DNA from: a virus
IMG/VR virus record: IMGVR_UViG_3300049893_003322
Length of the DNA stretch: 60,145 nt
Direction: 5' to 3' (one strand)
Part shown: one piece after another, positions 10,877 to 24,257 of the stretch
Layout of the letters: every line of letters starts with the position of its first letter
Position numbering within the stretch: position 1 is the stretch's first letter
Notes under the pieces: generated by a model
The model's database searches: none
Told to the model about the DNA's origin: nothing
Seen by the model: the letters and a program-made list of their open reading frames with translations, nothing else
Program-made: the position numbers and the translations under genes

Positions 10877-12118
10877 TCATGGTCGCTTGGTACTAAGATC
10901 AAGTGACAAGTCTTTTGCGGCTTTCGCCGTGAGCATTTCGATTAGGGCGCTGCCGCCGTTCCCCTGGCCGGCGGCAGCGCCCATCTGCACACTTGGCACC
11001 CAAGCGCCTTTGTAGTTGGCAATTGCGTTGGCGTACATCTCGCTCACTTTCACATACGCCTCCAGCTTCTTGTCGAGGGCGCCGTCCGCCGCCATGACAA
11101 GCTTTCGACGTTCGGCTTCGCCTTCGCCCATCAGAATCTGCTCCTGTTTCCGGAGCTTTGCCGTTTCTGCATCCAAGGCGGCCACCGCACGTCGCTGCTC
11201 CGCTGTAGTGACCTCCTTCGCCTTGATAACCTCCTGTTCCCACTTGGCTTTCATGGCGTCAGCTTCTCCGTTCTTGGCTGCTGTAATCGCCGCCTGTTCG
11301 GCTTTCTTCGATTCGGCGATGGCCGTCTGTACCTGCATGATCGCGGACTGCTGCGCGTTGATCTGATCCGTCGTCGCCTTGTCGTACGTAATATCGCCCA
11401 GGGAGAGATTGAACGCCCGGAGTTGAAACTCATCCAGGGCGGAGGGTTCCTGTCGGGCAAATCCGTGATCCGCCGCCGCCTGACTCGGCACCACGTCCAC
11501 AATCTTCACGGTCTTTTCCTGACCGGTCATTTCATCCCGAACTTTCGCTTCCCGGACGTTCGTGCGGTACACGCCGTGACTGACCTGGTCGAGAATTAGG
11601 AAGAGCATATCATTCCGACGTGTGGCGAAGGATTCTGTGGAGGACATCAACGGCCCCGTCATTGTGATGACCTTTTCCATCACCGGTCGGATGATCTGGC
11701 GTTCGATGGCTTCGTCCGAACCGTACTTGGAGTGCAAATCGTTCAGCGCGGTCGTGGCGGTCGGCATTTCCCAGGAGATTGCGCCGGAAATTTGCCCCGC
11801 GCCGTTGTCGTTGAACCGTGTCGGCAACGGAATCCCCGAGGCGTCGTCACTCTCTTTTTTGCCGCGAAAGTCGAACTGATGCCGTTTCCGATACTGCGTG
11901 ATTTTGCCAAATCCCTGCCACTTCCATCCTTGGGTGGTGTACCAGCGCAACTCGCCGGTGACGGGAGACTGGACGACCATGATATGGCTGGCGTCCAGGT
12001 TTTCCGCGAGGTTTCCGACGATCAGCGGTGTCAGAATCAGGAGGATGACGGTGCCAATGACGCGGCGACTTCGCGAGAGAATGTTTCGAATCTGATTGAC
12101 CTCAGCGGGGTTACTCAT
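10877..12118 (-). CDS. SPFH/band-7 (stomatin/flotillin-like) membrane protein
   Basis: N-terminal transmembrane helix VIGTVILLILTPLIVGNL. An SPFH-like core is followed by an Ala/Glu/Lys-rich coiled coil (AEQAAITAAKNGEADAMKAKWEQE...). Confidence 0.55.
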   Translation of the reverse strand: MSNPAEVNQIRNILSRSRRVIGTVILLILTPLIVGNLAENLDASHIMVVQSPVTGELRWYTTQGWKWQGFGKITQYRKRHQFDFRGKKESDDASGIPLPTRFNDNGAGQISGAISWEMPTATTALNDLHSKYGSDEAIERQIIRPVMEKVITMTGPLMSSTESFATRRNDMLFLILDQVSHGVYRTNVREAKVRDEMTGQEKTVKIVDVVPSQAAADHGFARQEPSALDEFQLRAFNLSLGDITYDKATTDQINAQQSAIMQVQTAIAESKKAEQAAITAAKNGEADAMKAKWEQEVIKAKEVTTAEQRRAVAALDAETAKLRKQEQILMGEGEAERRKLVMAADGALDKKLEAYVKVSEMYANAIANYKGAWVPSVQMGAAAGQGNGGSALIEMLTAKAAKDLSLDLSTKRP

Positions 12119-12335: not shown

Positions 12336-12353
12336 AGAGTGAGGAGAGAAAAA

Positions 12354-12702
12354 TGGAGGCGGGGGGATTCGAACCCCCGTCCGGAGCAATGTCACCAACC
12401 CGTGATACGAGCGTGCCTAGTTTCTGGTCCCAGGCGGACTGCGGCTCAGGAGAACCACCCAACAGACGAACGATCCTGCAACCTGCAACAACCCTCGGTC
12501 TTGGGTTCACTAGGTCGCCGAGGAACCTAGGCGTTGTTCACGCGGCCGCGAGGGCCGGAGCGAAGGCCGGGGCTTTCCAACCCTGACCTGGAGGCAACGC
12601 AATACCAGCACGAGGCGTGGCATTTGTGGTGTGTTACTGTAAGGCCCGTAACGCTCCGCTCGCACGAACAGGGTCTATCCTCCGTCGAAACCAATCGCCC
12701 CC
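12354..12702 (-). ncRNA. ssrA: tmRNA (SsrA)
   Basis: The 5' end GGGGGCGAUUGGUUUCGACGG pairs with the 3' end ...GGGGGUUCGAAUCCCCCCGCCUCCA, forming a G3:U70 acceptor stem plus T-arm. A reading frame inside ends ...FAPALAAA followed by UGA, the typical proteolysis-tag ending. Length is about 349 nt. CCA is not encoded. Confidence 0.85.
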
Positions 12703-13415: not shown

Positions 13416-13416
13416 A

Positions 13417-13489
13417 TAGCCCCGCTAGGGATCGAACCTAGAGCCTTCTGGGTCAAAGCCAGCTGCACCGCCGATTGTGCTACAGGGCC
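13417..13489 (-). tRNA. tRNA-Gln (anticodon UUG)
   Basis: Cloverleaf read by eye: acceptor GGCCCUG/CGGGGCU, T-loop UUCGAUC, anticodon loop CUUUGAC. No CCA encoded. Overlaps the stop of the downstream ORF. Confidence 0.75.
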
Positions 13490-13827
13490 AGATCTTCTGT
13501 GGGCTTGCCCAGGCGGGCCGCCTGGTCTCGGGTAAAGCCACTCCCGTATGTCGTGCTGGTGGGCTCGTGGATACGCACGAGCTTATCGCAAAATCGGGCG
13601 ATGTCGTTGTTACGCGCCTTGAACTGCGGCCAGGCCTGTGCCAAGGGCAAGCATTCAACCACCCAGAGCCCAGCGGCCTGGGCTTCGTTCGCTGCGAGCT
13701 GGTCGATGCCTGCGCACCCACCACTCACGACTACGCTGGGAGAGAGCCGGCGAAGGACGTCGCGGATGATGTCTCGGGCCCTGGCCTCATCGGTGACGTT
13801 CTTGGAGCCCACAATGGCTAGTCGCAT
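13480..13827 (-). CDS. DUF2493 / SLOG-family protein
   Basis: MRLAIVGSKNVTDE...VVVSGGCAGIDQLAANEAQAAG matches the GGAxGxD Rossmann-like SLOG fold seen in phage DUF2493 proteins. Confidence 0.55.
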   Translation of the reverse strand: MRLAIVGSKNVTDEARARDIIRDVLRRLSPSVVVSGGCAGIDQLAANEAQAAGLWVVECLPLAQAWPQFKARNNDIARFCDKLVRIHEPTSTTYGSGFTRDQAARLGKPTEDLAL

Positions 13828-13983
13828 TCACAGTCGCCGGTCGTTGGTGAGTCGAGTAGTTCCTGCAATTGGGCCTCGGCATCGACATCCCGACGCGCAT
13901 CACTGATCTTCCGGTGCTGCGACGCTCGTTTGTTGACGCGCTCGTCCTTCCAGCCTTTGCACCCGCAATACATGCGTTGATGT

Positions 13984-14496
13984 TTAGGGCGTTTGCGCTT
14001 GTGATGCATTGTGTGTGCGAATGCGAAGGCAGGGCGCGCCCTCGTGCCAAAGGTTGAGGGTAAACGCGTGCGAGAATAGCTCAAGATCGCCCAGTGTAAG
14101 ACTAACGACGGTCACCGACCCCGACTGAGGCAGACGCTGATCGGGGGAGGCAGAGTGAGCGTACAGGACAATTGGCAGCGTGGGAATCGACTTGAGCTCG
14201 TGGATGGCAAGCAACTCCACCCCCCAGCGCAGGCGTGATGAACCGAGGCGTTCCCGGAGGCCGATCCAGTGTTCATCACCCTTAAAGGTGAGGGAGACGA
14301 GGTCCGCGTACGCCTGAGCGATTTCGGGCTCGGAAGCGTCCGCCGCGTTTGCGACCCTCATTATCCGCTCGACCAAGGACTCGGGACTGCTCTGCCTCGC
14401 GAGATCAAGCACGGTCGTGTCCTCACGAAGCTTCCGGTACAGGTACGCAGGGGTATTAGCGAAAAGAAAGCTTTGCAGAACTGAATCCGCGACCAT
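13984..14496 (-). CDS. hypothetical protein
   Basis: ORF-track 13984..14634 trimmed to the internal Met MVADSV so it does not run through tRNA-Gln(CUG). Confidence 0.35.
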   Translation of the reverse strand: MVADSVLQSFLFANTPAYLYRKLREDTTVLDLARQSSPESLVERIMRVANAADASEPEIAQAYADLVSLTFKGDEHWIGLRERLGSSRLRWGVELLAIHELKSIPTLPIVLYAHSASPDQRLPQSGSVTVVSLTLGDLELFSHAFTLNLWHEGAPCLRIRTHNASQAQTP

Positions 14497-14576
14497 TGGA
14501 ATCACTTGAAGCGAAGTCGAAAGTATTTTGCGTGGCCGAAATTGTACGGACACCGCTTGGCCAAGTTCGGTAGGAA

Positions 14577-14649
14577 TAGCCTCGCTAGGGATCGAACCTA
14601 GAACCTTCCGGGTCAGAGCCGGGTGCACCGCCAATTGTGCTACAAGGCC
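14577..14649 (-). tRNA. tRNA-Gln (anticodon CUG)
   Basis: Near-identical paralog of the 13417 tRNA, with anticodon loop CUCUGAC. Acceptor GGCCUUG/CGAGGCU. Confidence 0.75.
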
Positions 14650-14719
14650 AGATTGAGGTAGGACGACCGGAAGCGCGAGCTCTCCCTGGAGCGCGGACGT
14701 ACGGAAGCGCTACCTCAAG

Positions 14720-14791
14720 TCCCTTCGGTCGGATTCGAACCGACGACCACCAGCTTATGAGGCCGGGGCTCTGCCGCTGAGCTACGAAGGA
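14720..14791 (-). tRNA. tRNA-Met elongator-type (anticodon CAU)
   Basis: Acceptor UCCUUCG/CGAAGGG with a paired 1:72. Anticodon loop CUCAUAA. T-loop UUCGAAU. Confidence 0.75.
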
Positions 14792-14799
14792 AGAGACAG

Positions 14800-14871
14800 A
14801 CCGCCTGGAGAGACTCGAACTCTCACGGAGCTGCTTGGAAGGCAGCCGCCTTACCTTTCGGCCACAGACGG
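14800..14871 (-). tRNA. tRNA-Gly (anticodon UCC)
   Basis: Acceptor CCGUCUG/CAGGCGG. Anticodon loop CUUCCAA. T-loop UUCGAGU. Confidence 0.7.
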
Positions 14872-15291
14872 ATGTACTACAACGAATCGATTGTCGAATA
14901 TTTGCGACAACGTCGGGCGGACATCCGCCCACTCCAATCTGCCAAGTCCGCAACCCGGACGAGGTAACACCACCGACACTCCTTTCAAGAGGTCCAGCAT
15001 AGCCACGAGTTCGCAGGCGGATTGCTGAATCAGAGCCAGGTTCGCTCGTTCCCGGTAGTGGTGCTTTGTTGGGAAGCTGGCCAGGCGAAATTGACACACA
15101 GCGTAGACGTGATTTCCATACCGACGTACCTTATCGCCGAGCATCAATGGTAGCGGCGGATACCGCTGCGCGGCCTCGCGGGCGACTCCTGCACCCATCA
15201 CCAATTCGCCGTTCTGCTTGACAATCCCGTTGGTAGTGACCACACGCCACTCCGCCGGATACGTCCAGACATCGCCAATCGCCTCGAGCAT
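14851..15291 (-). CDS. macro-domain (ADP-ribose binding/processing) protein
   Basis: VVTTNGIVKQNGELVMGAGVAREAAQRYP resembles the macrodomain N-terminal glycine-rich motif. 146 aa. Stop overlaps tRNA-Gly by about 20 nt. Confidence 0.5.
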   Translation of the reverse strand: MLEAIGDVWTYPAEWRVVTTNGIVKQNGELVMGAGVAREAAQRYPPLPLMLGDKVRRYGNHVYAVCQFRLASFPTKHHYRERANLALIQQSACELVAMLDLLKGVSVVLPRPGCGLGRLEWADVRPTLSQIFDNRFVVVHPSVAER

Positions 15292-15296
15292 GCGTG

Positions 15297-15533
15297 CTAT
15301 TGCTCTCTGGCCGAGTCTTTCGGCGCATTATCACTGGCTGGCCCGACCAGTGTGTTCAGAATCCGAGTCGCGTCGACTTCGTTCAGAAATCGCGGGTTGG
15401 CACTCCGCCACCGCGCACCATCCAGAGTATGCCCCACGTATGTCCGCTTCGTCCCAGTTGCGGAAGCTGTCGACACGACACGCTCTACGATGCCGATGCG
15501 TCCTTTGTTGCACACTGCCAGTTGTGCTGTCAT
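15297..15533 (-). CDS. hypothetical protein
   Basis: Internal Met MTAQLAV. Lies in operon with the macro-domain gene. Confidence 0.35.
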   Translation of the reverse strand: MTAQLAVCNKGRIGIVERVVSTASATGTKRTYVGHTLDGARWRSANPRFLNEVDATRILNTLVGPASDNAPKDSAREQ

Positions 15534-16159
15534 GCTTCCTCCGGCTGCCGGTAATAAGTCAAGTCGAAGAACACGGGCACTGCGTGCCGCCACCCCACAT
15601 TCGACACCTGGTGCACATCGCCTACGCCCAATTGACGACCGAGTGCGCGAATCGTTTCATACTGGATTCGGTATTGCGTCTCGTCCGGGGCGCAGTATTC
15701 TTGGACCATGGTACCAGGGGTAATGTACACCGTCCACGGAACGTGCTGTCGGTAACCCCGTCGACAGAGATCTCCCACGGCCTTTGCGTCCCCTGCAACG
15801 TCTCCTCGAAGACGGCGCTTCAAGCACCAGAACTCTTCCCGGTGGTCGATGACAAAAGCGATCTTGTATTCGCCGATGTGTGAGATAGCCCGCAGTTCGC
15901 GAAGCTGGAGCCATAGGGAAAAGGCGGAGGCCAGGCGCCAAAATTCGCTCCGGCGTTGATACGTGTGGTCGAGATCGACCGCCGCGATTGGCCAGGCGGC
16001 TAGGGCGTGCGCCGCCCGAAGCACACGCGGCGGAACCCACACTGACTCAGTCGAGGAGAGCCTTCCTGATTTCGCGCTTCTCCGCTCGGCGCTGGCGCTT
16101 CCAGAACTGCCGCTTGCCATACTTACGCAGATGTTTCGCCCATTCTGCAGCTTGCGCAA
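15530..16159 (-). CDS. hypothetical protein
   Basis: 209-aa ORF. Contains a 24-nt DNA segment that recurs exactly at 57008. Confidence 0.4.
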   Translation of the reverse strand: MRKLQNGRNICVSMASGSSGSASAERRSAKSGRLSSTESVWVPPRVLRAAHALAAWPIAAVDLDHTYQRRSEFWRLASAFSLWLQLRELRAISHIGEYKIAFVIDHREEFWCLKRRLRGDVAGDAKAVGDLCRRGYRQHVPWTVYITPGTMVQEYCAPDETQYRIQYETIRALGRQLGVGDVHQVSNVGWRHAVPVFFDLTYYRQPEEA

Positions 16160-16262
16160 GTATGCCCTTTTTGATCGTGCTCATGCTCTCCCTCGTACTG
16201 TGCGTTGCACGCATTGCATTCATAACGATCGGTGCCCCATCGCGTGAACACGGGGGCCCCAG

Positions 16263-16337
16263 TCTCCGAGGCTGGATTCGAACCAGCGGCTTCCGCCATC
16301 CGAAGGCGGCTGTCTGACCGGGCTGACGTACTCGGAG
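16263..16337 (-). tRNA. tRNA-Pro (anticodon CGG)
   Basis: Acceptor CUCCGAG/CUCGGAG. Anticodon loop UUCGGAU. T-loop UUCGAAU. Confidence 0.75.
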
Positions 16338-16548
16338 CGTAGTACACAACAATCCTTGGCAACACGAGTCCGCAGGCGCGACACACGAATCCCGTTGAAT
16401 TTTCGTATACAGACGCGTGCCGACATCCATCGACTACGTTAGCAACAAGCCCGGCAGGGCATCCGCAGCTAGCCACATGCGGCGCGTGAATACTGTGACA
16501 ACGCGGGCATTCCCAGCCGAGAGGAGTGAGACTCATACTGCCCTCCAG

Positions 16549-16782
16549 TTAATCCGAGTCTGCACCGGCGCAATACGAACACACCAAGGGAGTGCCGTCG
16601 CAGGCCGTGCAGCGCCAGCTGCCGTCGCCGTTGCAGCTGCCGCAGCGCACGTAGTGACTGTGGCCGCACGAGCAGCAGCACTCGATCTCGCCGTCACCGT
16701 TGCAGTTCGGGCACTCTACGATGCCGCTAGTGCATTCGTAACACTGGCCCGTACCGTCACCGTCGCACTCTGGACAGGACAT
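16549..16782 (-). CDS. DnaJ-type zinc-finger miniprotein (CxxCxGxG repeats)
   Basis: 77 aa from Met MSCPECDGDG. Carries CPECDGDG, CPNCNGDG and CGSCNGDG repeats. The ORF-track N-terminal extension would run through tRNA-Pro(UGG). Confidence 0.5.
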   Translation of the reverse strand: MSCPECDGDGTGQCYECTSGIVECPNCNGDGEIECCCSCGHSHYVRCGSCNGDGSWRCTACDGTPLVCSYCAGADSD

Positions 16783-16824
16783 TATGGAGCCTCCCAGGTT
16801 AGGACTTGGAGTAAAGCGTATAAG

Positions 16825-16898
16825 TCGGGACAGCAGGACTCGAACCTGCAACCTCCTGCTTCCAAAGCAGGTAGTCTGACCAATTGACGTATGTCCCG
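16825..16898 (-). tRNA. tRNA-Pro (anticodon UGG)
   Basis: Acceptor CGGGACA/UGUCCCG. Anticodon loop UUUGGAA. T-loop UUCGAGU. Confidence 0.75.
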
Positions 16899-17068
16899 CC
16901 GGCTTCCGCACCTTTTCGAAGGGTGCGCAGGTGCCGATTCGCGCCGTCCGTCGACTTTGCGAACAACCTGCTGACGCACAGTTTCCCTAGACGGCCAACG
17001 TCAGCTTCCCGTCCTCGGGCGCAGGTTAACTTGTCGACAGGTCGCCTGCGCGCGTAGACTGTCGCGAG

Positions 17069-17142
17069 AGCCCTCCGCCAGATTCGAACTGGCGACTTCC
17101 TGTTTACGAAACAGGCGCTCTGGCCGGCTGAGCTAGAAGGGC
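17069..17142 (-). tRNA. tRNA-Thr (anticodon CGU)
   Basis: Acceptor GCCCUUC/GGAGGGC. Anticodon loop UUCGUAA. T-loop UUCGAAU. Confidence 0.75.
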
Positions 17143-17423
17143 ATATTAGCCACAGTGACGAGTACGTCGCCATGACAAGCTTGCGGCGCGCACCAACATC
17201 CCAAAATCTTACCCCGAAGCTCCCGCTGCGCCTTTTGTACTAGTTCGGGCTGAGCCAGAAGCCACTCACGATAGAGGTCGATCACGCGACGCCGCTCCTC
17301 GACCGTATGACTTTGCATTACGAACGGATTCCCCCACTCTCCCGGGGCGCCCGTCTTGGGACACTGGCCTCGACCGATATATACGTCGTAGTTTGCGTAC
17401 TTGCAGTGCACAACGAGCTTCAT
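17133..17423 (-). CDS. DUF4326-family protein
   Basis: YIGRG...GNPF...GCWCAPQACHGDVL matches the phage DUF4326 signature. Start trimmed to the internal Met to clear tRNA-Cys. Confidence 0.5.
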   Translation of the reverse strand: MKLVVHCKYANYDVYIGRGQCPKTGAPGEWGNPFVMQSHTVEERRRVIDLYREWLLAQPELVQKAQRELRGKILGCWCAPQACHGDVLVTVANMPF

Positions 17424-17429
17424 AAGAAG

Positions 17430-17502
17430 AGTCTCGAGTTGGAATCGAACCAACGTTTTTGAGGTTGCAGCTCAACGCCAAGATCCACTAGGCTTTCGAG
17501 AC
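17430..17502 (-). tRNA. tRNA-Cys (anticodon GCA)
   Basis: Acceptor GUCUCGA/UCGAGAC. Anticodon loop CUGCAAC. T-loop UUCGAUU. Confidence 0.7.
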
Positions 17503-18180
17503 CACGTGTCGCAGGTCTTCGATACGGTTCGACAGACGTGGCAGTAGTGTCACCACCACGGCGTGCACGGCCGGAACGCGTTCCCGAACATCACTCCACT
17601 CCGCCAACAAGGCTTTCGTCACTTTGTGTGCGGGGTTCTTCTGCAGAATTCGGTCCAGGGCGCTCCACATAGCCGGATCCCCGCCGCAACGACCAAACTC
17701 CCGGCAGAAGAACGGATGCTCGGTCTGGTACATACGAAAATAATCTTGTCGGGTGTCGGACAGACTGGCCCGTACGTTGGCCAGGCGGTCTGCCAACTTG
17801 ACGTTGAGTAGATACGGATAGGGTCGCAACGCTTCCCGCAGCTTCACATACGTCAGACGCTGGCGCTCGTGGCGGTTCGCTCCCGGCTCATCGGTCAGCG
17901 CCCACACGGCGTCGGCAATAGCCAATCCGAACTCCATCTCGACATCCTCGCGGGTTGTCGGGGTGTCCTCGAGCACGTCGTGCAAATGCGCGATAGTCAG
18001 CGGAATGGGCTGTGTATGTCGAAACTCGACCAGGACGTCCGACACTGCCTTCAGATGGACACTGAAATCGGCGCCCCCGTAGCTATGTCCCGCTCTCCGA
18101 TGTCGCTCGGCCGCCCACGTCAGCGATCGTTCCACCTCCGATCCATTCCACATACAGTCTCCCGGCAAACTGCGTCGCAC
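17488..18180 (-). CDS. HD-domain hydrolase, SpoT/RelA-type (putative (p)ppGpp hydrolase)
   Basis: The HLHDVLEDT motif corresponds to the SpoT/Mesh1 HD hydrolase motif (HDVVEDT). An upstream His is present. 230 aa. Confidence 0.6.
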   Translation of the reverse strand: MRRSLPGDCMWNGSEVERSLTWAAERHRRAGHSYGGADFSVHLKAVSDVLVEFRHTQPIPLTIAHLHDVLEDTPTTREDVEMEFGLAIADAVWALTDEPGANRHERQRLTYVKLREALRPYPYLLNVKLADRLANVRASLSDTRQDYFRMYQTEHPFFCREFGRCGGDPAMWSALDRILQKNPAHKVTKALLAEWSDVRERVPAVHAVVVTLLPRLSNRIEDLRHVVSKA

Positions 18181-18181
18181 A

Positions 18182-18255
18182 TACCCTCGGTAGGATTCGA
18201 ACCTACAAGAATTAGTTTAGGAAACTAACGTCGACTCCGCTTCGACCTCGAGGGC
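18182..18255 (-). tRNA. tRNA-Arg (anticodon CCU)
   Basis: Acceptor GCCCUCG/CGAGGGU. Anticodon loop UUCCUAA. T-loop UUCGAAU. Confidence 0.75.
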
Positions 18256-18325
18256 GGTTCTCTTCAGTCGTCGGCCTGCGCGGTATCCAAGGCTGAGCGA
18301 GGCTTTATCCTGCTCCGGTCTCGCA

Positions 18326-18700
18326 TCAGCATCGGCACCACCGACCCGTGTTGGGCATTACAGAAACCGCGCGATCGTCCCACAGTTCTTCCATCTCGTA
18401 GTCTTTCGTCGCCGTCACTGGTAAGACTTGGCCCAAATGGGCCTGGCACCAAACCTGAATCACAGGGACCTGGTCCGGATCCGAAGCGCGGGCTGTGAAA
18501 ATACGGACGTCGCGCCCCGCTGCCAACCAGCTCTTTACAAGTTCGAGAATCGGGCGAACGGGCGCGCCGATAGTATAGAGCGAATCTCCATGATTGCGCA
18601 CGGCAAGAGTTCCGTCAAGATCTACGCCTATCCAGCCCACGATGCCCTCCAAAGGAGTCGAACCTTCATTCTCGGGGTAGAAGCCCGATGTCTTGTCCAT
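18326..18700 (-). CDS. HAD-superfamily phosphatase-like protein
   Basis: Internal Met MDKTSG. The IGVDLDGTLAV motif is the DxDGT HAD motif I. Start trimmed to avoid tRNA-Val(UAC). Confidence 0.45.
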   Translation of the reverse strand: MDKTSGFYPENEGSTPLEGIVGWIGVDLDGTLAVRNHGDSLYTIGAPVRPILELVKSWLAAGRDVRIFTARASDPDQVPVIQVWCQAHLGQVLPVTATKDYEMEELWDDRAVSVMPNTGRWCRC

Positions 18701-18719
18701 TAGACGAAGAAGGCGCAAA

Positions 18720-18794
18720 TAGGCAACCAGGGAATCGAACCCTGCAATGACGCGGTGTGTAGGACCGCCGTTCGCACCAGCGAACCGGTCGCCT
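18720..18794 (-). tRNA. tRNA-Val (anticodon UAC)
   Basis: Acceptor AGGCGAC/GUUGCCU. Anticodon loop CCUACAC with C at position 33 instead of the usual U. T-loop UUCGAUU. Confidence 0.65.
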
Positions 18795-18880
18795 AGAGGA
18801 ACACGGGGCTCCTTCCATCGAAAGGACGCCACTCCCGATGACGGTCGGTTTCCAGAATCCGTCAACCTGCCGTGCTCCAA

Positions 18881-18952
18881 TGAAGTGACAAGGATTTGAA
18901 CCTTGGACCTGCTGCGTGTCGAGCAGCTGCTCTGCCGCTGAGCTATCACTTC
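18881..18952 (-). tRNA. tRNA-Val (anticodon GAC)
   Basis: Acceptor GAAGUGA/UCACUUC. Anticodon loop UCGACAC. T-loop UUCAAAU. Confidence 0.7.
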
Positions 18953-18967
18953 GTATTCCTGCATGAG

Positions 18968-19040
18968 AGCCGCCCGTCGGAATCGAACCGACAACGGCCG
19001 GTTTACAAAACCGGGGCTCTGCCTGTTGAGCTAGAGCGGC
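18968..19040 (-). tRNA. tRNA-Thr (anticodon UGU)
   Basis: Acceptor GCCGCUC/GGGCGGC. Anticodon loop UUUGUAA. T-loop UUCGAUU. Confidence 0.75.
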
Positions 19041-19424
19041 CTAGTCCGAAAGCACCACCCGACGTCGGGACAAGGACTGGGGCTCTTTCGCAACGCAACC
19101 AGCCACGCGAACGAGTGCTGCGTCCGCCGAGTCGAGGAGTGCGAAGACCGGCTTCGTTACTAAATCATCCACAGGGCACGCGTCATGATATACGGCAACA
19201 ACTTGCCCGAGTCGAAGTCTCTCCGGTCTGCCAGGGGGCTGTAGCGGACACAAAGCCCAGTCGTCGACGCAAATCTGGAGCGAGGGGGGCGCGTGGTACA
19301 ACAGCACCTTGGGCACGTCTACAATACGTACCTCACACCAAGTGGGCCTCGCCTCCTCTTCCTCCTCTTTCTCCCACTCCCACTCGTCGAGCCAGTCGAA
19401 GTTGTCCGTGTAAAGCACAGTCAT
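19041..19424 (-). CDS. hypothetical acidic protein
   Basis: 127-aa ORF with a Trp/Glu-rich N-terminus (DEWEWEKEEEEE). Confidence 0.4.
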   Translation of the reverse strand: MTVLYTDNFDWLDEWEWEKEEEEEARPTWCEVRIVDVPKVLLYHAPPSLQICVDDWALCPLQPPGRPERLRLGQVVAVYHDACPVDDLVTKPVFALLDSADAALVRVAGCVAKEPQSLSRRRVVLSD

Positions 19425-19429
19425 TGTTC

Positions 19430-19512
19430 ATGCCCCTGAAGCGAATCGAACGCTTACGCTTTGTCAGCGGCGGTTTTTGAGACCGCTGGGTCTACCGGTT
19501 CCCCCACAAGGG
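19430..19512 (-). tRNA. tRNA-Leu (anticodon CAA), class II
   Basis: 83 nt. Acceptor GCCCUUG/CAGGGGC with A73. Anticodon loop CUCAAAA. Long variable arm CGCUGACAAAGCG. T-loop UUCGAUU. Confidence 0.75.
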
Positions 19513-19567
19513 CGCAACTTATCTACGATGTTGCGGTTTGTCCACATCGGACGAGTGGTTGCCATTT

Positions 19568-19639
19568 ATTGCAGGGGACGGAGTCGAACCGTCAACCTCC
19601 TGGGCATGAACCAGGCACGCTACCGTTGCGCCACCCTGC
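19568..19639 (-). tRNA. initiator tRNA-fMet (anticodon CAU)
   Basis: C1:A72 mismatch (CGCAGGG/CCCUGCA), the bacterial initiator hallmark. Anticodon stem has three G-C pairs and loop UUCAUGC. Confidence 0.7.
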
Positions 19640-19818
19640 GATAGTGCCGGTCTATTCCCGACTGTCAATACCCTGCGCCCGCTCCAGTGGAAAGCGTTCA
19701 CTGATCGGGCTTTCCGTGTCGAATCGGTACGACATGCTCGAAAAGTCTACCTCGCAAGGCCAAGGAGAGTGTGAGGTAGCCAATCCTAGTTGGGCTTCTG
19801 CGGCACACCTGGCACATC

Positions 19819-19878
19819 TCTGCATATTCGGAATACCCTCGAAGAGACTCTGCATATTCGTAATACCCCCGGAGAGAT
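19819..19878. repeat. 30-bp imperfect tandem duplication spanning the tRNA-Arg(UCG) 3' end
   Basis: TCTGCATATTCGGAATACCCTCGAAGAGAC is followed directly by TCTGCATATTCGTAATACCCCCGGAGAGAT. The second copy contains the acceptor-T-arm junction of the tRNA. Confidence 0.6.
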
Positions 19879-19937
19879 TCGAACTCCCGACGCCCAGGTT
19901 CGAAGCCTGGCGCTCTGTCCACTGAGCTACGGAGGCA
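19864..19937 (-). tRNA. tRNA-Arg (anticodon UCG)
   Basis: Acceptor GCCUCCG/CGGGGGU. Anticodon loop CUUCGAA. T-loop UUCGAAU. Confidence 0.7.
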
Positions 19938-20387
19938 CTATCTGATACCGCAATCGAAAAATACTGGCGCGCGTCCTCTTCGAAATCCTACGTTCTGCCA
20001 GTGGATATCGATCAGATCGAGTCCGAGACACCGCGCCAATGTCTCGATAGCTCTACGGTTCTTTCTGTATCGACACCAGTTCGGAGGACATCGCTCTTGC
20101 ACACAGACCTTGGCAGTTATCCTGCGAATCTTCGGAAAATAGCGTCGATGTCGCGTTCGGCGTTTTTCTGCAATAAACCTCGCGTCGTTATGGTGGTACG
20201 GAGTGGAGTGGCGGCAAATCTTGATACAATATCGCCGGCCGACAAGCACGCTCTTGTAGGCGCCGCCGGTTAGCGACAGAACTGGAAACCCAGCAGCGCG
20301 AGCTGTGGTTACAAGAACGTCGTCCTCTCCGTTCGCAATCTTGGCAATAGCTCGAGCCGCACGCAGTACGTGATTTGGAATTCGCAT
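19938..20387 (-). CDS. hypothetical protein with protein-kinase-like catalytic motifs
   Basis: LIDIHWQNVGF resembles the kinase catalytic loop (DxHxxN). VFFDCG resembles a DFG-like motif. 149 aa, tentative. Confidence 0.35.
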   Translation of the reverse strand: MRIPNHVLRAARAIAKIANGEDDVLVTTARAAGFPVLSLTGGAYKSVLVGRRYCIKICRHSTPYHHNDARFIAEKRRTRHRRYFPKIRRITAKVCVQERCPPNWCRYRKNRRAIETLARCLGLDLIDIHWQNVGFRRGRAPVFFDCGIR

Positions 20388-20425
20388 GTCGAAAAGACGA
20401 TTCGACAGCGAAAAACGTCACACAA

Positions 20426-20499
20426 TACCCTTCGTAGGATTCGAACCTACAACCTCTTGATTCGTAGTCAAGCGCTCTGTCCAGTTGAGCTAGAAAGGT
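20426..20499 (-). tRNA. tRNA-Arg (anticodon ACG)
   Basis: Acceptor ACCUUUC/GAAGGGU. Anticodon loop CUACGAA. T-loop UUCGAAU. Confidence 0.75.
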
Positions 20500-20746
20500 G
20501 GTTCACGATGTGGAACAATTCTCGTGGCGTCAGCGGAGGCGGCTCGTTGTATTTGCGATACACCGCGATATGTGCTAGCCACGCTTGAGCGCAAGCTTCT
20601 TCGTCATAGTCCACTCGGCGTTGCCTGCACTCGTACGCACTCAGGCGGTTATACGCCTTCCACGAGGCACCCTGCTCTCGAATGAAAGCTTTCGACAACT
20701 CTGCCTGTTCCGCTTTGGTGAGCCGCGTTGCTTTTTTCTTTGACAT
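20468..20746 (-). CDS. small hypothetical protein
   Basis: Lys-rich N-terminus MSKKKATRLTKAEQ. The C-terminus overlaps tRNA-Arg(ACG), so it may be truncated or not real. Confidence 0.3.
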   Translation of the reverse strand: MSKKKATRLTKAEQAELSKAFIREQGASWKAYNRLSAYECRQRRVDYDEEACAQAWLAHIAVYRKYNEPPPLTPRELFHIVNHLSSSTGQSA

Positions 20747-20754
20747 TGCACAAG

Positions 20755-20839
20755 TCCGCAGGGAAGGATTCGAACCTTCGAAGCCCGAGGGCGTCCGCTT
20801 TACAGGCGGCAGCGTTTAACCACTTCGCGTTACCTACGG
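20755..20839 (-). tRNA. tRNA-Tyr (anticodon GUA), class II
   Basis: 85 nt. Acceptor CCGUAGG/CCUGCGG. Anticodon loop CUGUAAA. Long variable arm. T-loop UUCGAAU. Confidence 0.65.
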
Positions 20840-21042
20840 AAAATATCTCTGGATGCCCGCCGCAACTCTCGGTTCCTGCACTCGCGGAAGGCCTGTCTAC
20901 GACCTTTTGCGTACGCGTCACACATCCAGGTTATTACAAACTCCTTCTCAAACAGCTCCCAGCCCGGGCAGGCGACTGTCAGAAGCTCGGCGAAGCGTTC
21001 CCGTACTTCTTTCTCCGACGTCCGCTTGCTGCGCTTTAGCAT
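20830..21042 (-). CDS. small hypothetical protein
   Basis: 70-aa ORF with basic residues. Lies between tRNA-Tyr and tRNA-Ala. Confidence 0.3.
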   Translation of the reverse strand: MLKRSKRTSEKEVRERFAELLTVACPGWELFEKEFVITWMCDAYAKGRRQAFRECRNRELRRASRDIFRR

Positions 21043-21062
21043 GCTGCTCCTTGTTGTCTAAG

Positions 21063-21135
21063 TGGAGTCGGCGGGGCTCGAACCCGCGACCTGCGCGCTG
21101 CCGGCGCGCTGCTCTCCCAACTGAGCTACAACCCC
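21063..21135 (-). tRNA. tRNA-Ala (anticodon GGC)
   Basis: Acceptor GGGGUUG/CGACUCC with G3:U70. Anticodon loop CCGGCAG. T-loop UUCGAGC. Confidence 0.75.
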
Positions 21136-21138
21136 GAA

Positions 21139-21212
21139 TGGAGACGGCGGGATTCGAACCCACACCCTGCTGAGTGCAAATCAGCTGCGCTACCCAATTG
21201 CGCTACATCCCC
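21139..21212 (-). tRNA. tRNA-Ala (anticodon UGC)
   Basis: Acceptor GGGGAUG/CGUCUCC with G3:U70. Anticodon loop UUUGCAC. T-loop UUCGAAU. Confidence 0.75.
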
Positions 21213-21214
21213 AG

Positions 21215-21286
21215 TGGACCGAGCGGGAGTCGAACCCGCAACCTTCCCGTCGCGAACGGGGTGCTCTCCCATTGAGCTACCAGCCC
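21215..21286 (-). tRNA. tRNA-Ala (anticodon CGC)
   Basis: Acceptor GGGCUGG/UCGGUCC with G3:U70 plus two further wobble pairs. Anticodon loop UUCGCGA. T-loop UUCGACU. Confidence 0.65.
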
Positions 21287-21291
21287 CACAA

Positions 21292-21364
21292 AGCGTCTGC
21301 GGAGAATCGAACTCCGGGCCTCCGCGTTGGCGACGCGGCGTTCAGCCTACCGAACTCCAGACGC
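21292..21364 (-). tRNA. tRNA-Gly (anticodon GCC)
   Basis: Acceptor GCGUCUG/CAGACGC. Anticodon loop UCGCCAA. T-loop UUCGAUU. Confidence 0.7.
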
Positions 21365-21676
21365 ACAACTGGCGTGGCGGGTAACAACGCTATTAGGGTC
21401 AAGCCCTGCCCGGCGTTGTCCACCGCGCCACCCCAGGTTCCGAGAAGGCGTCCCAGGTTCTCTATACCCTTCCCTGTTGAGCGCGCCACGACGATCTTTC
21501 GACCGCTGGTACGCAGGCCACTCGGCTTCGCTCGCGAATCCTGTTCGTCTCCGAACTACCGAAACTCGCGATTCGCTTCTCGGGAGTTTCACCCGTCTCA
21601 GCCGGAAGCGCGGCTGCGATGTTCATTTGTTGCCCGTCTGCGAGACCTGGGTCTAGACGGCGCGCCAACAACGAGG

Positions 21677-21820
<144 letters not shown>

Positions 21821-21840
21821 TCGCGAACTTCCACTTACCA

Positions 21841-21925
21841 AGGCGAGAGTGAGATTCGAACTCACGGATGCCTGCGCACCGACGGTTTTCGAGACCGCTG
21901 CCTTAATCCACTCAGCCATCTCGCC
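21841..21925 (-). tRNA. tRNA-Ser (anticodon CGA), class II
   Basis: Acceptor GGCGAGA/UCUCGCC. Anticodon loop CUCGAAA. Long variable arm. T-loop UUCGAAU. Confidence 0.7.
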
Positions 21926-21928
21926 CTA

Positions 21929-22014
21929 CGGCAAGGGAGCGATTCGAACGCTCGGGTGTCCCAGACACCGACTGCTTTCCAAGCAGCTGCCTTAAGCCTC
22001 TCAGCCACCTTGCC
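21929..22014 (-). tRNA. tRNA-Ser (anticodon GGA), class II
   Basis: Acceptor GGCAAGG/CCUUGCC. Anticodon loop UUGGAAA. Long variable arm. T-loop UUCGAAU. Confidence 0.7.
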
Positions 22015-22035
22015 AATTTGTGCAACGTAACCCCA

Positions 22036-22116
22036 TGCGCTGCGCAGGAGTCGAACCTGCACCCTTTTCAGGACCATCATCTCAGAATGGTGTGTCTGCC
22101 GTTTCACCAGCAGCGC
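22036..22116 (-). tRNA. tRNA-Ser (anticodon UGA), class II
   Basis: Acceptor GCGCUGC/GCAGCGC. Anticodon loop UCUGAGA. Variable arm. T-loop UUCGACU. Confidence 0.65.
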
Positions 22117-22510
22117 GATTAACGCCCCACGTATCCGTTTGTTGATGACAGTTCGGGCACAGCAATTCCAGGTTGCTCCGCCGATTGTCCCGACGATCGC
22201 CGTTTCTATGGTGCAGATGTAGCTTGAGAGGTTTTCCGTTCCAGCTGTGCAGCGAGCACGTGTGGCACCTGTAGGAGAATCCCTCAGCGAGCAGCAGGGC
22301 GAGAAGGTTCCAGGATTTAACCCGCGAACCCTTTCGGAAGGGATCTGCACCCCGCCGTATCGTGTCAAACGCAATGCGGTAGTACACGAGCTGGGCTCGC
22401 AATTCGTGAACGAACCGCCCGTGGTGCGCTCGTCCAAAATGCTCCGCGATCTCTCGCAGCGACCGACACCGCGTGGTGGCCTCCACCAACTCGTCGCGCG
22501 TATATCTCAT
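22082..22510 (-). CDS. HNH homing-type endonuclease
   Basis: HLHHRNGDRRDNRRSNLELLCPNCH is a canonical HNH motif. ATG at 22508-22510 sits just 3' of tRNA-Thr(GGU). The ORF-track TTG start at 22564 would lie inside that tRNA. The 3' end overlaps tRNA-Ser(UGA). Confidence 0.65.
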   Translation of the reverse strand: MRYTRDELVEATTRCRSLREIAEHFGRAHHGRFVHELRAQLVYYRIAFDTIRRGADPFRKGSRVKSWNLLALLLAEGFSYRCHTCSLHSWNGKPLKLHLHHRNGDRRDNRRSNLELLCPNCHQQTDTWGVNRAAGETADTPF

Positions 22511-22522
22511 ATATATCACGAG

Positions 22523-22595
22523 AGCCCTCCGCGCGATTCGAACGCGCCACCCCCACCTTACCAAGGTGGTACTCTGCCTGCTGAGCTAGAAGGGC
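22523..22595 (-). tRNA. tRNA-Thr (anticodon GGU)
   Basis: Acceptor GCCCUUC/GGAGGGC. Anticodon loop UUGGUAA. T-loop UUCGAAU. Confidence 0.75.
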
Positions 22596-22681
22596 GTGAC
22601 TCGAGACCGGGCCGGACAATACGCCGGTCTCCGGCTCGACAGCGCCCGTAGATACAGGACGCTTCAGATGCCGCAACGTCA

Positions 22682-22755
22682 CGAGTCGGGTAGGATTCGA
22701 ACCTACAACAGACCAGTTTTGGAGACTGGTGTCCTACCAGATGGACGTCCGACTC
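22682..22755 (-). tRNA. tRNA-Trp (anticodon CCA)
   Basis: Acceptor GAGUCGG/CCGACUC with G73. Anticodon loop CUCCAAA. T-loop UUCGAAU. Confidence 0.75.
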
Positions 22756-22758
22756 AAA

Positions 22759-22831
22759 TACGCCCTCAGAGATTTGAACTCCGAACCTTCCGTGTATCAG
22801 ACGGATGCTCTTCCAGTTGAGCTAAAGGCGC
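22759..22831 (-). tRNA. tRNA-Ile (anticodon GAU)
   Basis: Acceptor GCGCCUU/AGGGCGU. Anticodon loop CUGAUAC. T-loop UUCAAAU. Confidence 0.7.
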
Positions 22832-22832
22832 A

Positions 22833-22905
22833 TACGCCACCAGAGACTTGAACTCTGAACCGGTCGTGTATAAGACGACTGCTCTGACCATTGAGCTAGC
22901 GGCGC
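22833..22905 (-). tRNA. tRNA-Ile (anticodon UAU)
   Basis: Acceptor GCGCCGC/GUGGCGU. Anticodon loop CUUAUAC. T-loop UUCAAGU. Separated from the previous tRNA by 1 nt. Confidence 0.65.
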
Positions 22906-22946
22906 ATTTCCAATTTCTCCCAGTACTTCAATTCTCAAACAACGCA

Positions 22947-23019
22947 TCAGGTGGTGGAGACTCGAACTCCATTCCCCGGAGCCACAATCCAGTGCTCTAT
23001 CCCGTTGAGCTACCACCTA
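22947..23019 (-). tRNA. tRNA-His (anticodon GUG)
   Basis: Acceptor UAGGUGG/CCACCUG. Anticodon loop UUGUGGC. T-loop UUCGAGU. The usual 5' G-1 is not evident. Confidence 0.65.
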
Positions 23020-23020
23020 G

Positions 23021-23094
23021 TACTCCGGGCGAGAGTCGAACTCGCAGACACCTGATCCTAAGTCAGACGGCTTTGCCAGTTTGCCTACCGGAGT
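23021..23094 (-). tRNA. class-I-shaped tRNA with Leu anticodon UAG (isotype uncertain)
   Basis: Acceptor ACUCCGG/CCGGAGU with A73. Leu-like 3-bp D-stem with an 11-nt D-loop (AAACUGGCAAA). Anticodon loop CUUAGGA. Only a 5-nt variable loop. T-loop UUCGACU. Confidence 0.55.
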
Positions 23095-23097
23095 GCA

Positions 23098-23172
23098 TGT
23101 CCGGAGTGGGAGTCGAACCCACAAGCAGTTGAGTCTGAGTCAACTAGGTTTGCCAGTTTCCTTCACCCGGAC
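23098..23172 (-). tRNA. class-I-shaped tRNA with Leu anticodon CAG (isotype uncertain)
   Basis: Acceptor GUCCGGG/UCCGGAC with A73. D-loop AAACUGGCAAA. Anticodon loop CUCAGAC. Short variable loop. T-loop UUCGACU. Confidence 0.55.
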
Positions 23173-23175
23173 GGA

Positions 23176-23250
23176 TGCCGAAGGTCGGCCTCGAACCGAC
23201 AAACCCCAGATTTTAAGTCTGGGAGGTCTTCCAGTTCCCTTCACTTCGGC
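23176..23250 (-). tRNA. class-I-shaped tRNA with Leu anticodon UAA (isotype uncertain)
   Basis: Acceptor GCCGAAG/CUUCGGC with A73. D-loop GAACUGGAAGA. Anticodon loop CUUAAAA. Short variable loop. T-loop UUCGAGG. Confidence 0.55.
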
Positions 23251-23253
23251 AAA

Positions 23254-23328
23254 CGGGACTAACCGGACTCGAACCGGTAACCTTCCGCGTGACAGGCGGG
23301 CGCTCTGGGCCAGTTGAGCTATAATCCC
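23254..23328 (-). tRNA. tRNA-Asp (anticodon GUC)
   Basis: Acceptor GGGAUUA/UAGUCCC with G73. Anticodon loop CUGUCAC. T-loop UUCGAGU. Confidence 0.75.
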
Positions 23329-23431
23329 AACGCAATCCGAGGCCGCAGCCGCAGAGCGGGATGCTCTGCACCGTCGTACTTCGGTTTCCACACTTCATAC
23401 ACACCAGCAACATAAGCCACTCCCGTCGAAG

Positions 23432-23505
23432 CGCCTTCCCAAGGAATCGAACCTTGCTACGGCGAGTTAACAGCTCGCTGCACTAGCCCAGAGTGCGAGG
23501 AAGGC
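23432..23505 (-). tRNA. tRNA-Asn (anticodon GUU)
   Basis: Acceptor GCCUUCC/GGAAGGC with G73. Anticodon loop CUGUUAA. T-loop UUCGAUU. Confidence 0.75.
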
Positions 23506-23508
23506 AAT

Positions 23509-23578
23509 AGGGGTACAGGGAGTCGAACCCTGGTTCTCCGGGTGAAAACCGGTGCTCCTGACCGCTGGAGGATACCCC
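23509..23578 (-). tRNA. tRNA-Glu (anticodon UUC)
   Basis: Acceptor GGGGUAU/GUACCCC. Anticodon loop UUUUCAC. T-loop UUCGACU. Short D-arm, about 70 nt overall. Confidence 0.6.
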
Positions 23579-23582
23579 CAAA

Positions 23583-23655
23583 TAGCGCCAGCGGGAATCG
23601 AACCCAGCGTTGCCCGAGTGAGAGTCGGACTGCCTGACCACTAGCAGATGGCGCC
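23583..23655 (-). tRNA. tRNA-Glu (anticodon CUC)
   Basis: Acceptor GGCGCCA/UGGCGCU. Anticodon loop CUCUCAC. T-loop UUCGAUU. Confidence 0.65.
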
Positions 23656-23662
23656 ATGGTGA

Positions 23663-23736
23663 TGCCTAGGGCTGGAATCGAACCAGCTACGTCGCAGTTC
23701 TTCAGACTGCCGCTCTACCAGTGAGCTACACAAGGC
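23663..23736 (-). tRNA. tRNA-Phe (anticodon GAA)
   Basis: Anticodon stem-loop GCAGU-CUGAAGA-ACUGC. T-loop UUCGAUU. Acceptor GCCUUGU/CCUAGGC has two mismatches, so the boundaries are uncertain. Confidence 0.55.
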
Positions 23737-23747
23737 GTGTCCAACAG

Positions 23748-23820
23748 TACCCCCGGCAGGAATCGAACCTGCAACTTTCCGCTTAAAAGGCGGTTACTCT
23801 GCCTGTTGAGTTACGGAGGT
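23748..23820 (-). tRNA. tRNA-Lys (anticodon UUU)
   Basis: Acceptor ACCUCCG/CGGGGGU. Anticodon loop CUUUUAA. T-loop UUCGAUU. Confidence 0.75.
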
Positions 23821-24184
23821 ATTTCCTGGGCGCTGGCCGGGCGGGGATCTTCCCCCCTACAGTGTCTCGCACACCCGGCCCCAGGTCCCGCTGACGACTC
23901 CAGGCTTGCGCCCTTGTAGGCGTGGATAGACGCCTCGTTCGTCTCGTCAGTAACGTCAATCAACCAGCACAACACGCGGGCTTGCTGCATACTTCGCTTC
24001 GTACGTGTCCCGCAGCTGTCGGTAGTGATCCCCGCGCAATCGCCAACGCCTCCCAGGACGTGAGTTCTAGTCTTCGCGTACCCGAGAACTCCCGTTTTCT
24101 TGGTTGGGACGCCTTGCTAAAGGGCTCCCCCACCGCAACGCCCACGACCCGACTGGACCGGGTGCTAGGGCTGCTAATGTTGCA

Positions 24185-24257
24185 TGCCGACTGCAGGAAT
24201 CGAACCTGCCATCTTCCGGGTAAGAACCGGATCCTTCGCCGTTGGTGGGAAGTCGGC
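24185..24257 (-). tRNA. tRNA-Lys (anticodon CUU)
   Basis: Acceptor GCCGACU/AGUCGGC. Anticodon stem-loop UCCGG-UUCUUAC-CCGGA. T-loop UUCGAUU. The D-arm is atypical. Confidence 0.55.

Follow-up and report, generated by a model that had tools for sequence, protein, structure and literature searches.

Three leucine tRNAs without a long variable arm

In a viral DNA stretch of 60,145 nucleotides (nt) (IMG/VR record IMGVR_UViG_3300049893_003322; the whole stretch is hereafter called the window), three consecutive tRNA genes with the leucine anticodons UAG, CAG, and UAA lack the long variable arm of canonical tRNALeu. From their sequences and those of their relatives, we consider it likely that the three are functional type I leucine tRNAs, which would be expressed and charged with leucine. 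ARAGORN and the Rfam tRNA model RF00005 (gathering score, 29 bits) agreed on the three genes, which a preliminary description of this DNA had already reported, and placed them on the minus strand:

23021-23094, minus strand: tRNA-Leu(UAG), type I, type A layout; 74 nt; Rfam 60.1 bits; called by ARAGORN
23098-23172, minus strand: tRNA-Leu(CAG), type I, type B layout; 75 nt; Rfam 46.5 bits; called by ARAGORN
23176-23250, minus strand: tRNA-Leu(UAA), type I, type B layout; 75 nt; Rfam 44.9 bits; called by ARAGORN

All three scored above the gathering score, with E-values of 7e-13 to 1e-8 and coverage of model positions 1-71 of 71, and the Infernal posterior probabilities were near-maximal overall and maximal across the anticodon arm. 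For the UAA gene, ARAGORN called 79 nt (23173-23251) with an eighth acceptor pair, and the Rfam register was adopted. An alternative fold with a different anticodon, which the preliminary description had named as a refuting result, was offered by neither ARAGORN nor the Rfam model. Rfam matches to YrlA and to a plastid untranslated region at the coordinates of the trio were far under their gathering scores and were rejected as reflecting tRNA-likeness only.

Each of the three tRNAs had an acceptor stem of 7 base pairs (bp), a 3-bp D stem, an 11-nt D loop, A14, A15, G18G19, a canonical 7-nt anticodon loop (Y32 U33 NNN R37), a UUCGA-type T loop, and A73, and its variable region ended in U48; CCA was encoded in none of them. 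The preliminary description was right about A73, the 3-bp D stem, and the 11-nt D loop in all three, whereas the loop sequence that it gave, AAACUGGCAAA, occurs in the UAG and CAG tRNAs and is replaced by GAACUGGAAGA in the UAA tRNA. The variable regions, UGUCU (UAG), UGCUU (CAG), and GGUUU (UAA), amounted to 4-5 nt. The class II long variable arm (>10 nt) of canonical tRNALeu was absent, and the trio showed the features by which type I tRNALeu has been defined, namely a loop of ~5 nt including nucleotide 48, with type II isoacceptors alongside (PMC6614811).

The UAG tRNA (type A) had the standard spacing of 2 nt before the D stem and 1 nt after it. Its layout consisted of a 7-bp acceptor stem (A1-U72), U8 A9, D stem GGC/GCC, G26, a 5-bp anticodon stem with the loop CUUAGGA, the variable region UGUCU, T arm GCGAG-UUCGACU-CUCGC, and A73. 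The CAG and UAA tRNAs (type B) carried an additional nucleotide after U8 and before the D stem, giving a U-G-A connector. In the CAG tRNA, the acceptor stem GUCCGGG/UCCGGAC and this connector were followed by D stem AGG/CCU, the 6-bp anticodon stem AGUUGA/UCAACU with the loop CUCAGAC (A37), the 4-nt variable loop GCUU, T arm GUGGG-UUCGACU-CCCAC, and A73. The UAA tRNA had the corresponding elements GCCGAAG/CUUCGGC, U-G-A, AGG/CCU, CCCAGA/UCUGGG with the loop CUUAAAA, GUUU, GUCGG-UUCGAGG-CCGAC, and A73. In an alignment of 39 type B sequences (alignment A2), positions 26 and 44 formed a standard Watson-Crick pair in 39/39, with both sides changed in 26. Because position 26 covaries with position 44, type B has a 6-bp anticodon stem and a 4-nt loop, and its layout is a 7-bp acceptor stem, a 3-nt connector, a 3-11-3 D arm, a 0-nt connector, a 6-bp anticodon stem, a 4-nt variable loop, and the T arm. 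The 5-nt extra arm previously ascribed to all three therefore applies to the UAG tRNA, and the CAG and UAA tRNAs have a 4-nt loop.

A family in phages, tRNA arrays, and bacterial chromosomes

When a 246-nt region was compared by blastn with ~50,000 phage records, 218 records matched: 169 of Mycobacterium, 44 of Streptomyces, 2 of Gordonia, 2 of Acinetobacter, and 1 of Tunturiibacter phages. The RNA feature under the match, where annotated, was tRNA-Leu among the records listed, and the homologous genes fetched from phage records were 74-77 nt long with short variable loops. Within the reach of a search limited by sequence similarity, no Escherichia phage was found among the 218 records, and blastn gave no match in 5,426 complete E. 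coli genomes. The UAG tRNA was 93% identical over 69 nt to the annotated tRNA-Leu(tag) of cluster L mycobacteriophages. The UAA tRNA matched the short Leu(UAA) of Tunturiibacter phage Tunturi_5 at 84% identity across 61 nt, and the T arms of these two are the same. The tRNA-Leu(tag) of Streptomyces phage PacManQ had the layout of the CAG tRNA and an identical anticodon stem.

Two D-arm motifs, the 17-mer GGCAAACTGGCAAAGCC from the UAG tRNA and the type B pattern TGAAGGNAACTGGNANACCT, were used as probes for the family. The 17-mer was found in 28 IMG/VR contigs and lay inside a tRNA in 24 of them, always with a leucine anticodon and a short variable region. In a set of one genome per bacterial species, it marked at least 25 tRNAs, all leucine, among the matches listed, and 96 of the listed matches fell outside tRNAs, a number roughly in line with our estimate of ~70 chance matches in ~600 Gb. 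The type B pattern marked 82 metagenomic tRNAs, all leucine and all short. Leucine anticodons were thus present in 131/131 motif-found tRNAs (24 viral, at least 25 bacterial among the matches listed, and 82 metagenomic), and all six of them (UAG, CAG, UAA, CAA, GAG, and AAG) were seen in the family; the acceptor, anticodon, and T stems differed freely. A Lys(CUU) tRNA among the metagenomic matches proved to be an artefact of the overlap test, the motif being absent from that tRNA. By these sequence comparisons, the trio belongs to a large family, whose members occur in phages, in prophage-like tRNA arrays, and on a small number of actinobacterial chromosomes.

Jiangellales and related Actinomycetota (loci L076, L087, L097, L107, L127, and L142) carried a single, isolated short tRNALeu(CAA) that shares the D-arm 17-mer. 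The Jiangellales genes were syntenic, lying beside an ANTAR response regulator (85-91% amino acid identity at five loci) and branched-chain-type binding proteins, and this conserved chromosomal neighbourhood indicated that they are vertically kept cellular genes, as in Streptomyces coelicolor. The identical 17-mer was also present in six long-armed chromosomal tRNALeu(UAA) genes from metagenome-assembled genomes of Solirubrobacterales/Conexibacteraceae (loci L051, L060, L069, L079, L115, and L135). Their long arms indicated that the motif works in conventional tRNALeu, and the motif links the short and long forms. The opposite case was observed as well: tRNAs with Asn (GUU), His (GUG), or Pro (UGG) anticodons and class II-like variable arms of 13-17 nt (L002 175-260; L034 3795-3880 and 6404-6491; L088 7704-7793; L008 4376-4463). 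These sit in phage and prophage arrays, including that of Acinetobacter phage Acibel004.

Covariation and conserved positions

The possibility that the short genes are non-functional relics, or non-translational elements such as decoys, integration-site mimics, or array processing signals, was weighed against covariation in the family. In an alignment of 52 sequences (A1), 97.4% of cells were paired and compensatory double changes occurred in 19/20 pairs. The covariation score was 0.919, compared with 0.21 after shuffling (reached in 0/500) and at most 0.16 in slid registers. Alignment A2 gave 99.4% paired cells and a score of 0.940, compared with 0.20 after shuffling. Outside the selecting motif, A35, G53, U54, U55, C56, A58, C61, and A73 were invariant in A1, and U8, U33, and U48 were each conserved in at least 90%. 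A73 was invariant in A2 also; across the short leucine tRNAs surveyed, A73 was present in 68/73 and U48 in 72/73. This result indicated that the family consists of genes that selection has long maintained as decoding tRNAs. The first acceptor pair was weak in A1, being G1:U72 in 27/52 and A1-U72 in 6/52; the UAG tRNA of the window has A1-U72.

Two points are in favour of relics. E. coli-type leucyl-tRNA synthetase (LeuRS) fails on a natural type I tRNALeu, so that the trio might stay uncharged in a non-permissive host, and, among the tRNAs of their array, the CAG and UAA tRNAs have Rfam scores toward the bottom of the range. On the other hand, all helices are intact, the compensatory changes extend family-wide across the cloverleaf including the anticodon stem, and decoding is suggested by A35, which never varies, and by the conservation of U33 and R37. 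We therefore consider relics or non-translational elements highly improbable.

Leucine identity

The identity set of E. coli LeuRS comprises A73, A14, A15:U48, G18G19, A20a, and the D/T-loop pairs, and neither the anticodon nor the long arm is among its determinants (Giege and Eriani 2023, PMC9976931). The conserved nucleotides of the short family coincide with this set, and the core determinants U8:A14, A15:U48, G18G19, A20a, U54:A58, U55, and C56 are all present in the trio. Constructs of E. coli tRNALeu without the arm are still charged (PMC9976931). In Aquifex aeolicus tRNALeu, deletion of the arm mainly lowers affinity, and deletion of U48 abolishes charging (PMC2377443). Judged from published identity sets, the trio appears to lack the determinants of other synthetases: G3:U70 for alanine, G73 together with the arm for serine, and the bases at positions 35 and 36 for anticodon-reading synthetases.

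Several observations weigh against our assignment. Single-sequence minimum-free-energy folding gave no cloverleaf for the trio (z-scores, -1.2, -3.5, and -2.9); such folding often misses the cloverleaf of tRNAs, and covariance models and family covariation were used in its place. The loci were picked by D-arm motifs, and conservation in the D-arm columns is by construction; being fixed by this selection, these columns carry no weight. Home-made isotype profile hidden Markov models (17-46 phage/array tRNAs per isotype; anticodon masked and variable region excised) ranked leucine top for 16/62 short bodies, with a median margin of 2.5 bits. Finally, the type I tRNALeu of S. coelicolor is no substrate for E. 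coli LeuRS or for one Streptomyces LeuRS (PMC6614811).

In the same isotype profiles, where margins were small, the CAG tRNA alone of the window trio was clearly leucine. A nearest-neighbour test by D-arm edit distance gave mixed top isotypes, with a leave-one-out accuracy of only 50% overall. These tests were indecisive, so the leucine identity rests on specific nucleotides and on anticodon statistics rather than on overall similarity. The short family appears, from its sequences, to be a distinct lineage and not long tRNALeu minus the arm. With regard to charging, the leucine-specific domain of LeuRS decides whether type I tRNALeu is charged (PMC6614811). Since charging was enzyme-dependent in the S. 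coelicolor system, charging of the trio would depend on the host LeuRS, whose compatibility we assume. The absence of Escherichia phages from the 218 blastn records and of matches in the E. coli genomes, within the reach of sequence similarity, agrees with such a dependence.

The preliminary description had also suggested that these might be recoded tRNAs, which would pair leucine anticodons with another amino acid and reread CUG, CUA, or UUA during infection. The crude profile tests, in which the bodies were not clearly leucine-like, are in keeping with this idea. So is an array tRNA of Rugosimonospora africana (L147 7067-7145), which has a short-Leu-like body, the anticodon UUC (Glu), and G73; this tRNA has the D arm GAC-GAAUUGGAAGA-GUC and a 7-nt variable loop, and may be an identity switch within the family. 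However, CUG, the codon of the short CAG tRNA, was the commonest leucine codon in the open reading frames (ORFs) of the window (32%), and CUG, CUA, and UUA together made up ~41% of leucine codons, so that misreading would be very costly. The presence of A73 in all three, the absence of determinants for other synthetases (by comparison with the identity sets in PMC9976931), and the leucine anticodons of all 131 family members among the matches listed also argue against recoding, which we regard as very unlikely.

Complementarity with long-armed isoacceptors

Two further leucine tRNAs of the window, both with class II arms, were found in the same array:

19431-19513, minus strand: tRNA-Leu(CAA), class II, 14-nt variable arm; 83 nt; Rfam 49.1 bits; called by ARAGORN
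22036-22116, minus strand: tRNA-Leu(GAG), class II, 13-nt variable arm; 81 nt; Rfam 46.4 bits; called by ARAGORN

The CAA isoacceptor is a normal class II tRNA, as had been noted; it is not the only one, the GAG tRNA having been overlooked. The five leucine anticodons of the window (UAG, CAG, UAA, CAA, and GAG) are all different. In 13 arrays with both short and long leucine tRNAs, no anticodon was common to both kinds (permutation P = 2e-4), as expected if one isoacceptor set were served by both. The trio and the long-armed CAA and GAG tRNAs would form one complete, non-redundant set of five leucine anticodons for the phage. The lack of short/long duplication within arrays is a further point against recoding, and such complementarity would be unexpected for decoys. 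At the same loci, long arms were kept in 45/46 Ser and 20/20 Tyr tRNAs, and only leucine tRNAs were bimodal.

The same split, with CAA and GAG long and UAG, CAG, and UAA short, was seen in Tunturi_5 (L004), in IMG/VR L033/L034, and in the window, which represent three phage lineages with no other relationship. Elsewhere, the short-armed tRNAs of an array can be CAA and GAG. A37 is present in both Leu(CAG) 23098-23172 and Leu(GAG) 22036-22116 of the window and in many family members likewise; CUN-reading leucine isoacceptors usually have G37 (the m1G37 site).

Proposed function and origin of the short arm

The proposal that these are streamlined leucine tRNAs is well supported by the leucine-only anticodons, the leucine identity set, the complementarity with long isoacceptors, and the published precedent for leucylation of type I tRNALeu. 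The trio would most likely be cut from a polycistronic array transcript. Because no CCA is encoded, CCA would be added by a nucleotidyltransferase. A host LeuRS would then charge the tRNAs with leucine, reading A73 and the core U8:A14, A15:U48, G18G19, A20a, and U54:A58 and neither the anticodon nor the long arm, and use on the ribosome would follow; no LeuRS gene was found in the window.

Bacterial tyrosyl-tRNA synthetase binds the variable arm of tRNATyr. Arm size is the major identity determinant of tRNASer (PMC9976931). Loss of the arm would be possible in tRNALeu because LeuRS is independent of it, and impossible in tRNASer and tRNATyr. The sequence pattern supports the view that the arm was lost where it is dispensable.

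Alternatively, the short arm may have been selected as a counter-defence, by which the trio would escape nucleases or toxins that hit the class II extra arm and leucine decoding would go on while host tRNALeu is destroyed. Enzymes that attack variable loops are known: VapC52 of Mycobacterium tuberculosis cuts that of tRNASer (PMC13273310), and Septu is reported to cut that of tRNATyr (PMC13096335). Phage tRNAs are known to work against defences that target tRNA (PMC10264068), a gene for an RtcB-type RNA ligase near the array (9422-10735) fits a theme of tRNA damage, and the short family is concentrated in phages and prophage-like arrays. However, Ser and Tyr tRNAs and two of the five leucine tRNAs of the window retain their arms, and the pattern tracks the synthetases able to spare the arm rather than known nuclease targets. 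Our literature search found no bacterial nuclease aimed at the tRNALeu arm. Moreover, Jiangellales carry the short form as a syntenic chromosomal gene, and in S. coelicolor it is essential; a counter-defence logic does not apply in these cases. Selection of this kind is, in our estimate, unlikely. The suggestion in the preliminary description that the trio are decoys resisting arm-targeting nucleases is likewise weakened by the arms kept on Ser, Tyr, and two leucine tRNAs of the array and by the conservation of the short form on the chromosomes of some actinobacteria.

We regard as equally doubtful the broader view that arm-less tRNALeu is a mobile, phage-spread family in which arm loss is adaptive, serving as counter-defence and host-range determinant, and in which type B rebuilds the core. 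If it were true, leucine decoding would be immune to host effectors that recognise the class II long arm, the phage would be tied to hosts in which the leucine-specific domain of LeuRS tolerates type I tRNALeu, and the type B layout would represent a so far undescribed structural answer to building a tRNA core without the arm.

Array, genome context, and phage lineage

The short leucine tRNAs lie between tRNA-Asp and tRNA-His, with spacers of 1-3 nt, in a large array next to a transfer-messenger RNA (tmRNA) gene:

13416..24257, minus strand: tRNA array of 41 genes for all 20 amino acids (ARAGORN)
12354-12702 (also given as 12351-12702), minus strand: tmRNA, beside the tRNA array (ARAGORN and Rfam)

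The tmRNA scored 82.1 bits with Rfam, and its predicted tag peptide is ATPRAGIALPPGQGWKAPAFAPALAAA. Rfam recovered the leucine tRNAs under permissive filters. The window has a G+C content of ~59%. Neighbouring ORFs matched phage families, namely RIIA-like, the ribonucleotide reductase large subunit, nicotinamide phosphoribosyltransferase, RtcB-type ligase, ThyX, DNA ligase, and integrase. Megablast of the region returned one 69-nt tRNA as its sole match and no close phage relative. In tblastn, identity to the RIIA-like protein did not exceed 24% for any phage of the collection, again with no close relative, and an IMG/VR search with the DUF2225 protein adjoining the array found no close relative either. 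Because no isolated phage was close by megablast or by comparison of the RIIA-like protein, we assign the window to a large phage that represents a new lineage and has a nearly complete set of tRNAs.

An 850-amino acid ORF (6567-9119, minus strand) contained the major vault protein shoulder domain PF11978 (1.2e-19) and the vault repeat PF17795 (1e-9), and such a vault-like protein is unusual for a phage. Its neighbours are the RtcB-type ligase (9422-10735), an SPFH/Band-7 protein (10877-12118), and the tmRNA. Within the array, the Val(UAC) call of ARAGORN at 18719-18795 (minus strand) was odd, with an 8-bp acceptor stem in the ARAGORN fold, C in place of U8, and a variable region of 7 nt. Among Rfam models, tRNA-Sec fitted it best (40.5 bits; gathering score, 47), rather than the general tRNA model.

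Comparison with known systems

To our knowledge, type I tRNALeu has been thought nearly confined to mitochondria, with S. coelicolor as the one studied bacterial case. The natural type I tRNALeu(CAA) of S. coelicolor is essential and is leucylated by a single LeuRS (Fan et al. 2019, PMC6614811). Its charging requires nucleotide 48 and a loop no shorter than 5 nt, U8:A14 is important, and the long arm is not an identity determinant for the S. coelicolor LeuRS (PMC6614811). This tRNA resembles the trio in its 5-nt variable loop and in the long-armed leucine isoacceptors alongside, and the type B tRNAs of the window have close relatives in phages isolated on S. lividans. Whereas the S. coelicolor gene is a single chromosomal isoacceptor, CAA, with the loop ACAGC (C48), the window family has U48, and the window carries three phage-borne isoacceptors, two of them with a 3/0 connector and a 6-bp anticodon stem; the two systems are likened by architecture.

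The closest known genes are the tRNA-Leu genes of actinophages and other phages, which belong to the same family and share the length of 74-77 nt, the D arm, A73, and the short variable loop. Examples are found in Mycobacterium phages of clusters L and A (Whirlwind gene 110 and Zetzy gene 8), Streptomyces phages Wofford and PacManQ, Acinetobacter phage Acibel004, and Tunturiibacter phage Tunturi_5. In Whirlwind, the tRNA-Leu(tag) is 93% identical to the UAG tRNA of the window and has a tRNA-His directly after it, as in the window. These genes are labelled plain tRNA-Leu, and the window phage is otherwise unrelated to those phages.

Animal mitochondrial tRNALeu, such as human mt-tRNALeu(UUR), is a natural type I tRNA whose identity lies in A73 and A14 (PMC9976931), and it is not charged by the S. 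coelicolor LeuRS (PMC6614811). It is organellar and floppy and has its own LeuRS, whereas the phage tRNAs have a GC-rich bacterial cloverleaf with G18G19 and a UUCGA T loop. The engineered arm-less tRNALeu of E. coli (Larkin et al. 2002) and A. aeolicus (Yao et al. 2008, PMC2377443) are chargeable if A73, U48, and the D/T-loop pairs are kept, and these required elements are those conserved in the window family; the constructs were made in the laboratory and have reduced affinity. Like the defence-evading phage tRNAs (van den Berg et al. 2023, PMC10264068; T5), the trio is arrayed and structurally unlike the host versions. The documented escapes, however, are anticodon-loop changes against anticodon nucleases, and the tRNALeu arm is not a known nuclease target.

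The sequences show that type I tRNALeu is common in phage tRNA arrays across several bacterial phyla, under strong purifying selection and as part of otherwise normal isoacceptor sets, and annotators should not call short leucine genes pseudogenes or isotype mismatches. The family also provides a natural test of identity rules, the arm being lost only where the synthetase can spare it. In published experiments, the LeuRS determines whether type I tRNALeu is charged; the short genes might therefore hold clues to host range, and compact tRNALeu scaffolds for engineering could be derived from them. In open-access full texts, we found no description of the missing arm in phage tRNALeu, of the breadth of the family, or of the type B layout. 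Bacterial type I tRNALeu has been published and the phage homologues have been deposited as tRNA-Leu, and the family-level picture given here is a modest extension of what is known.

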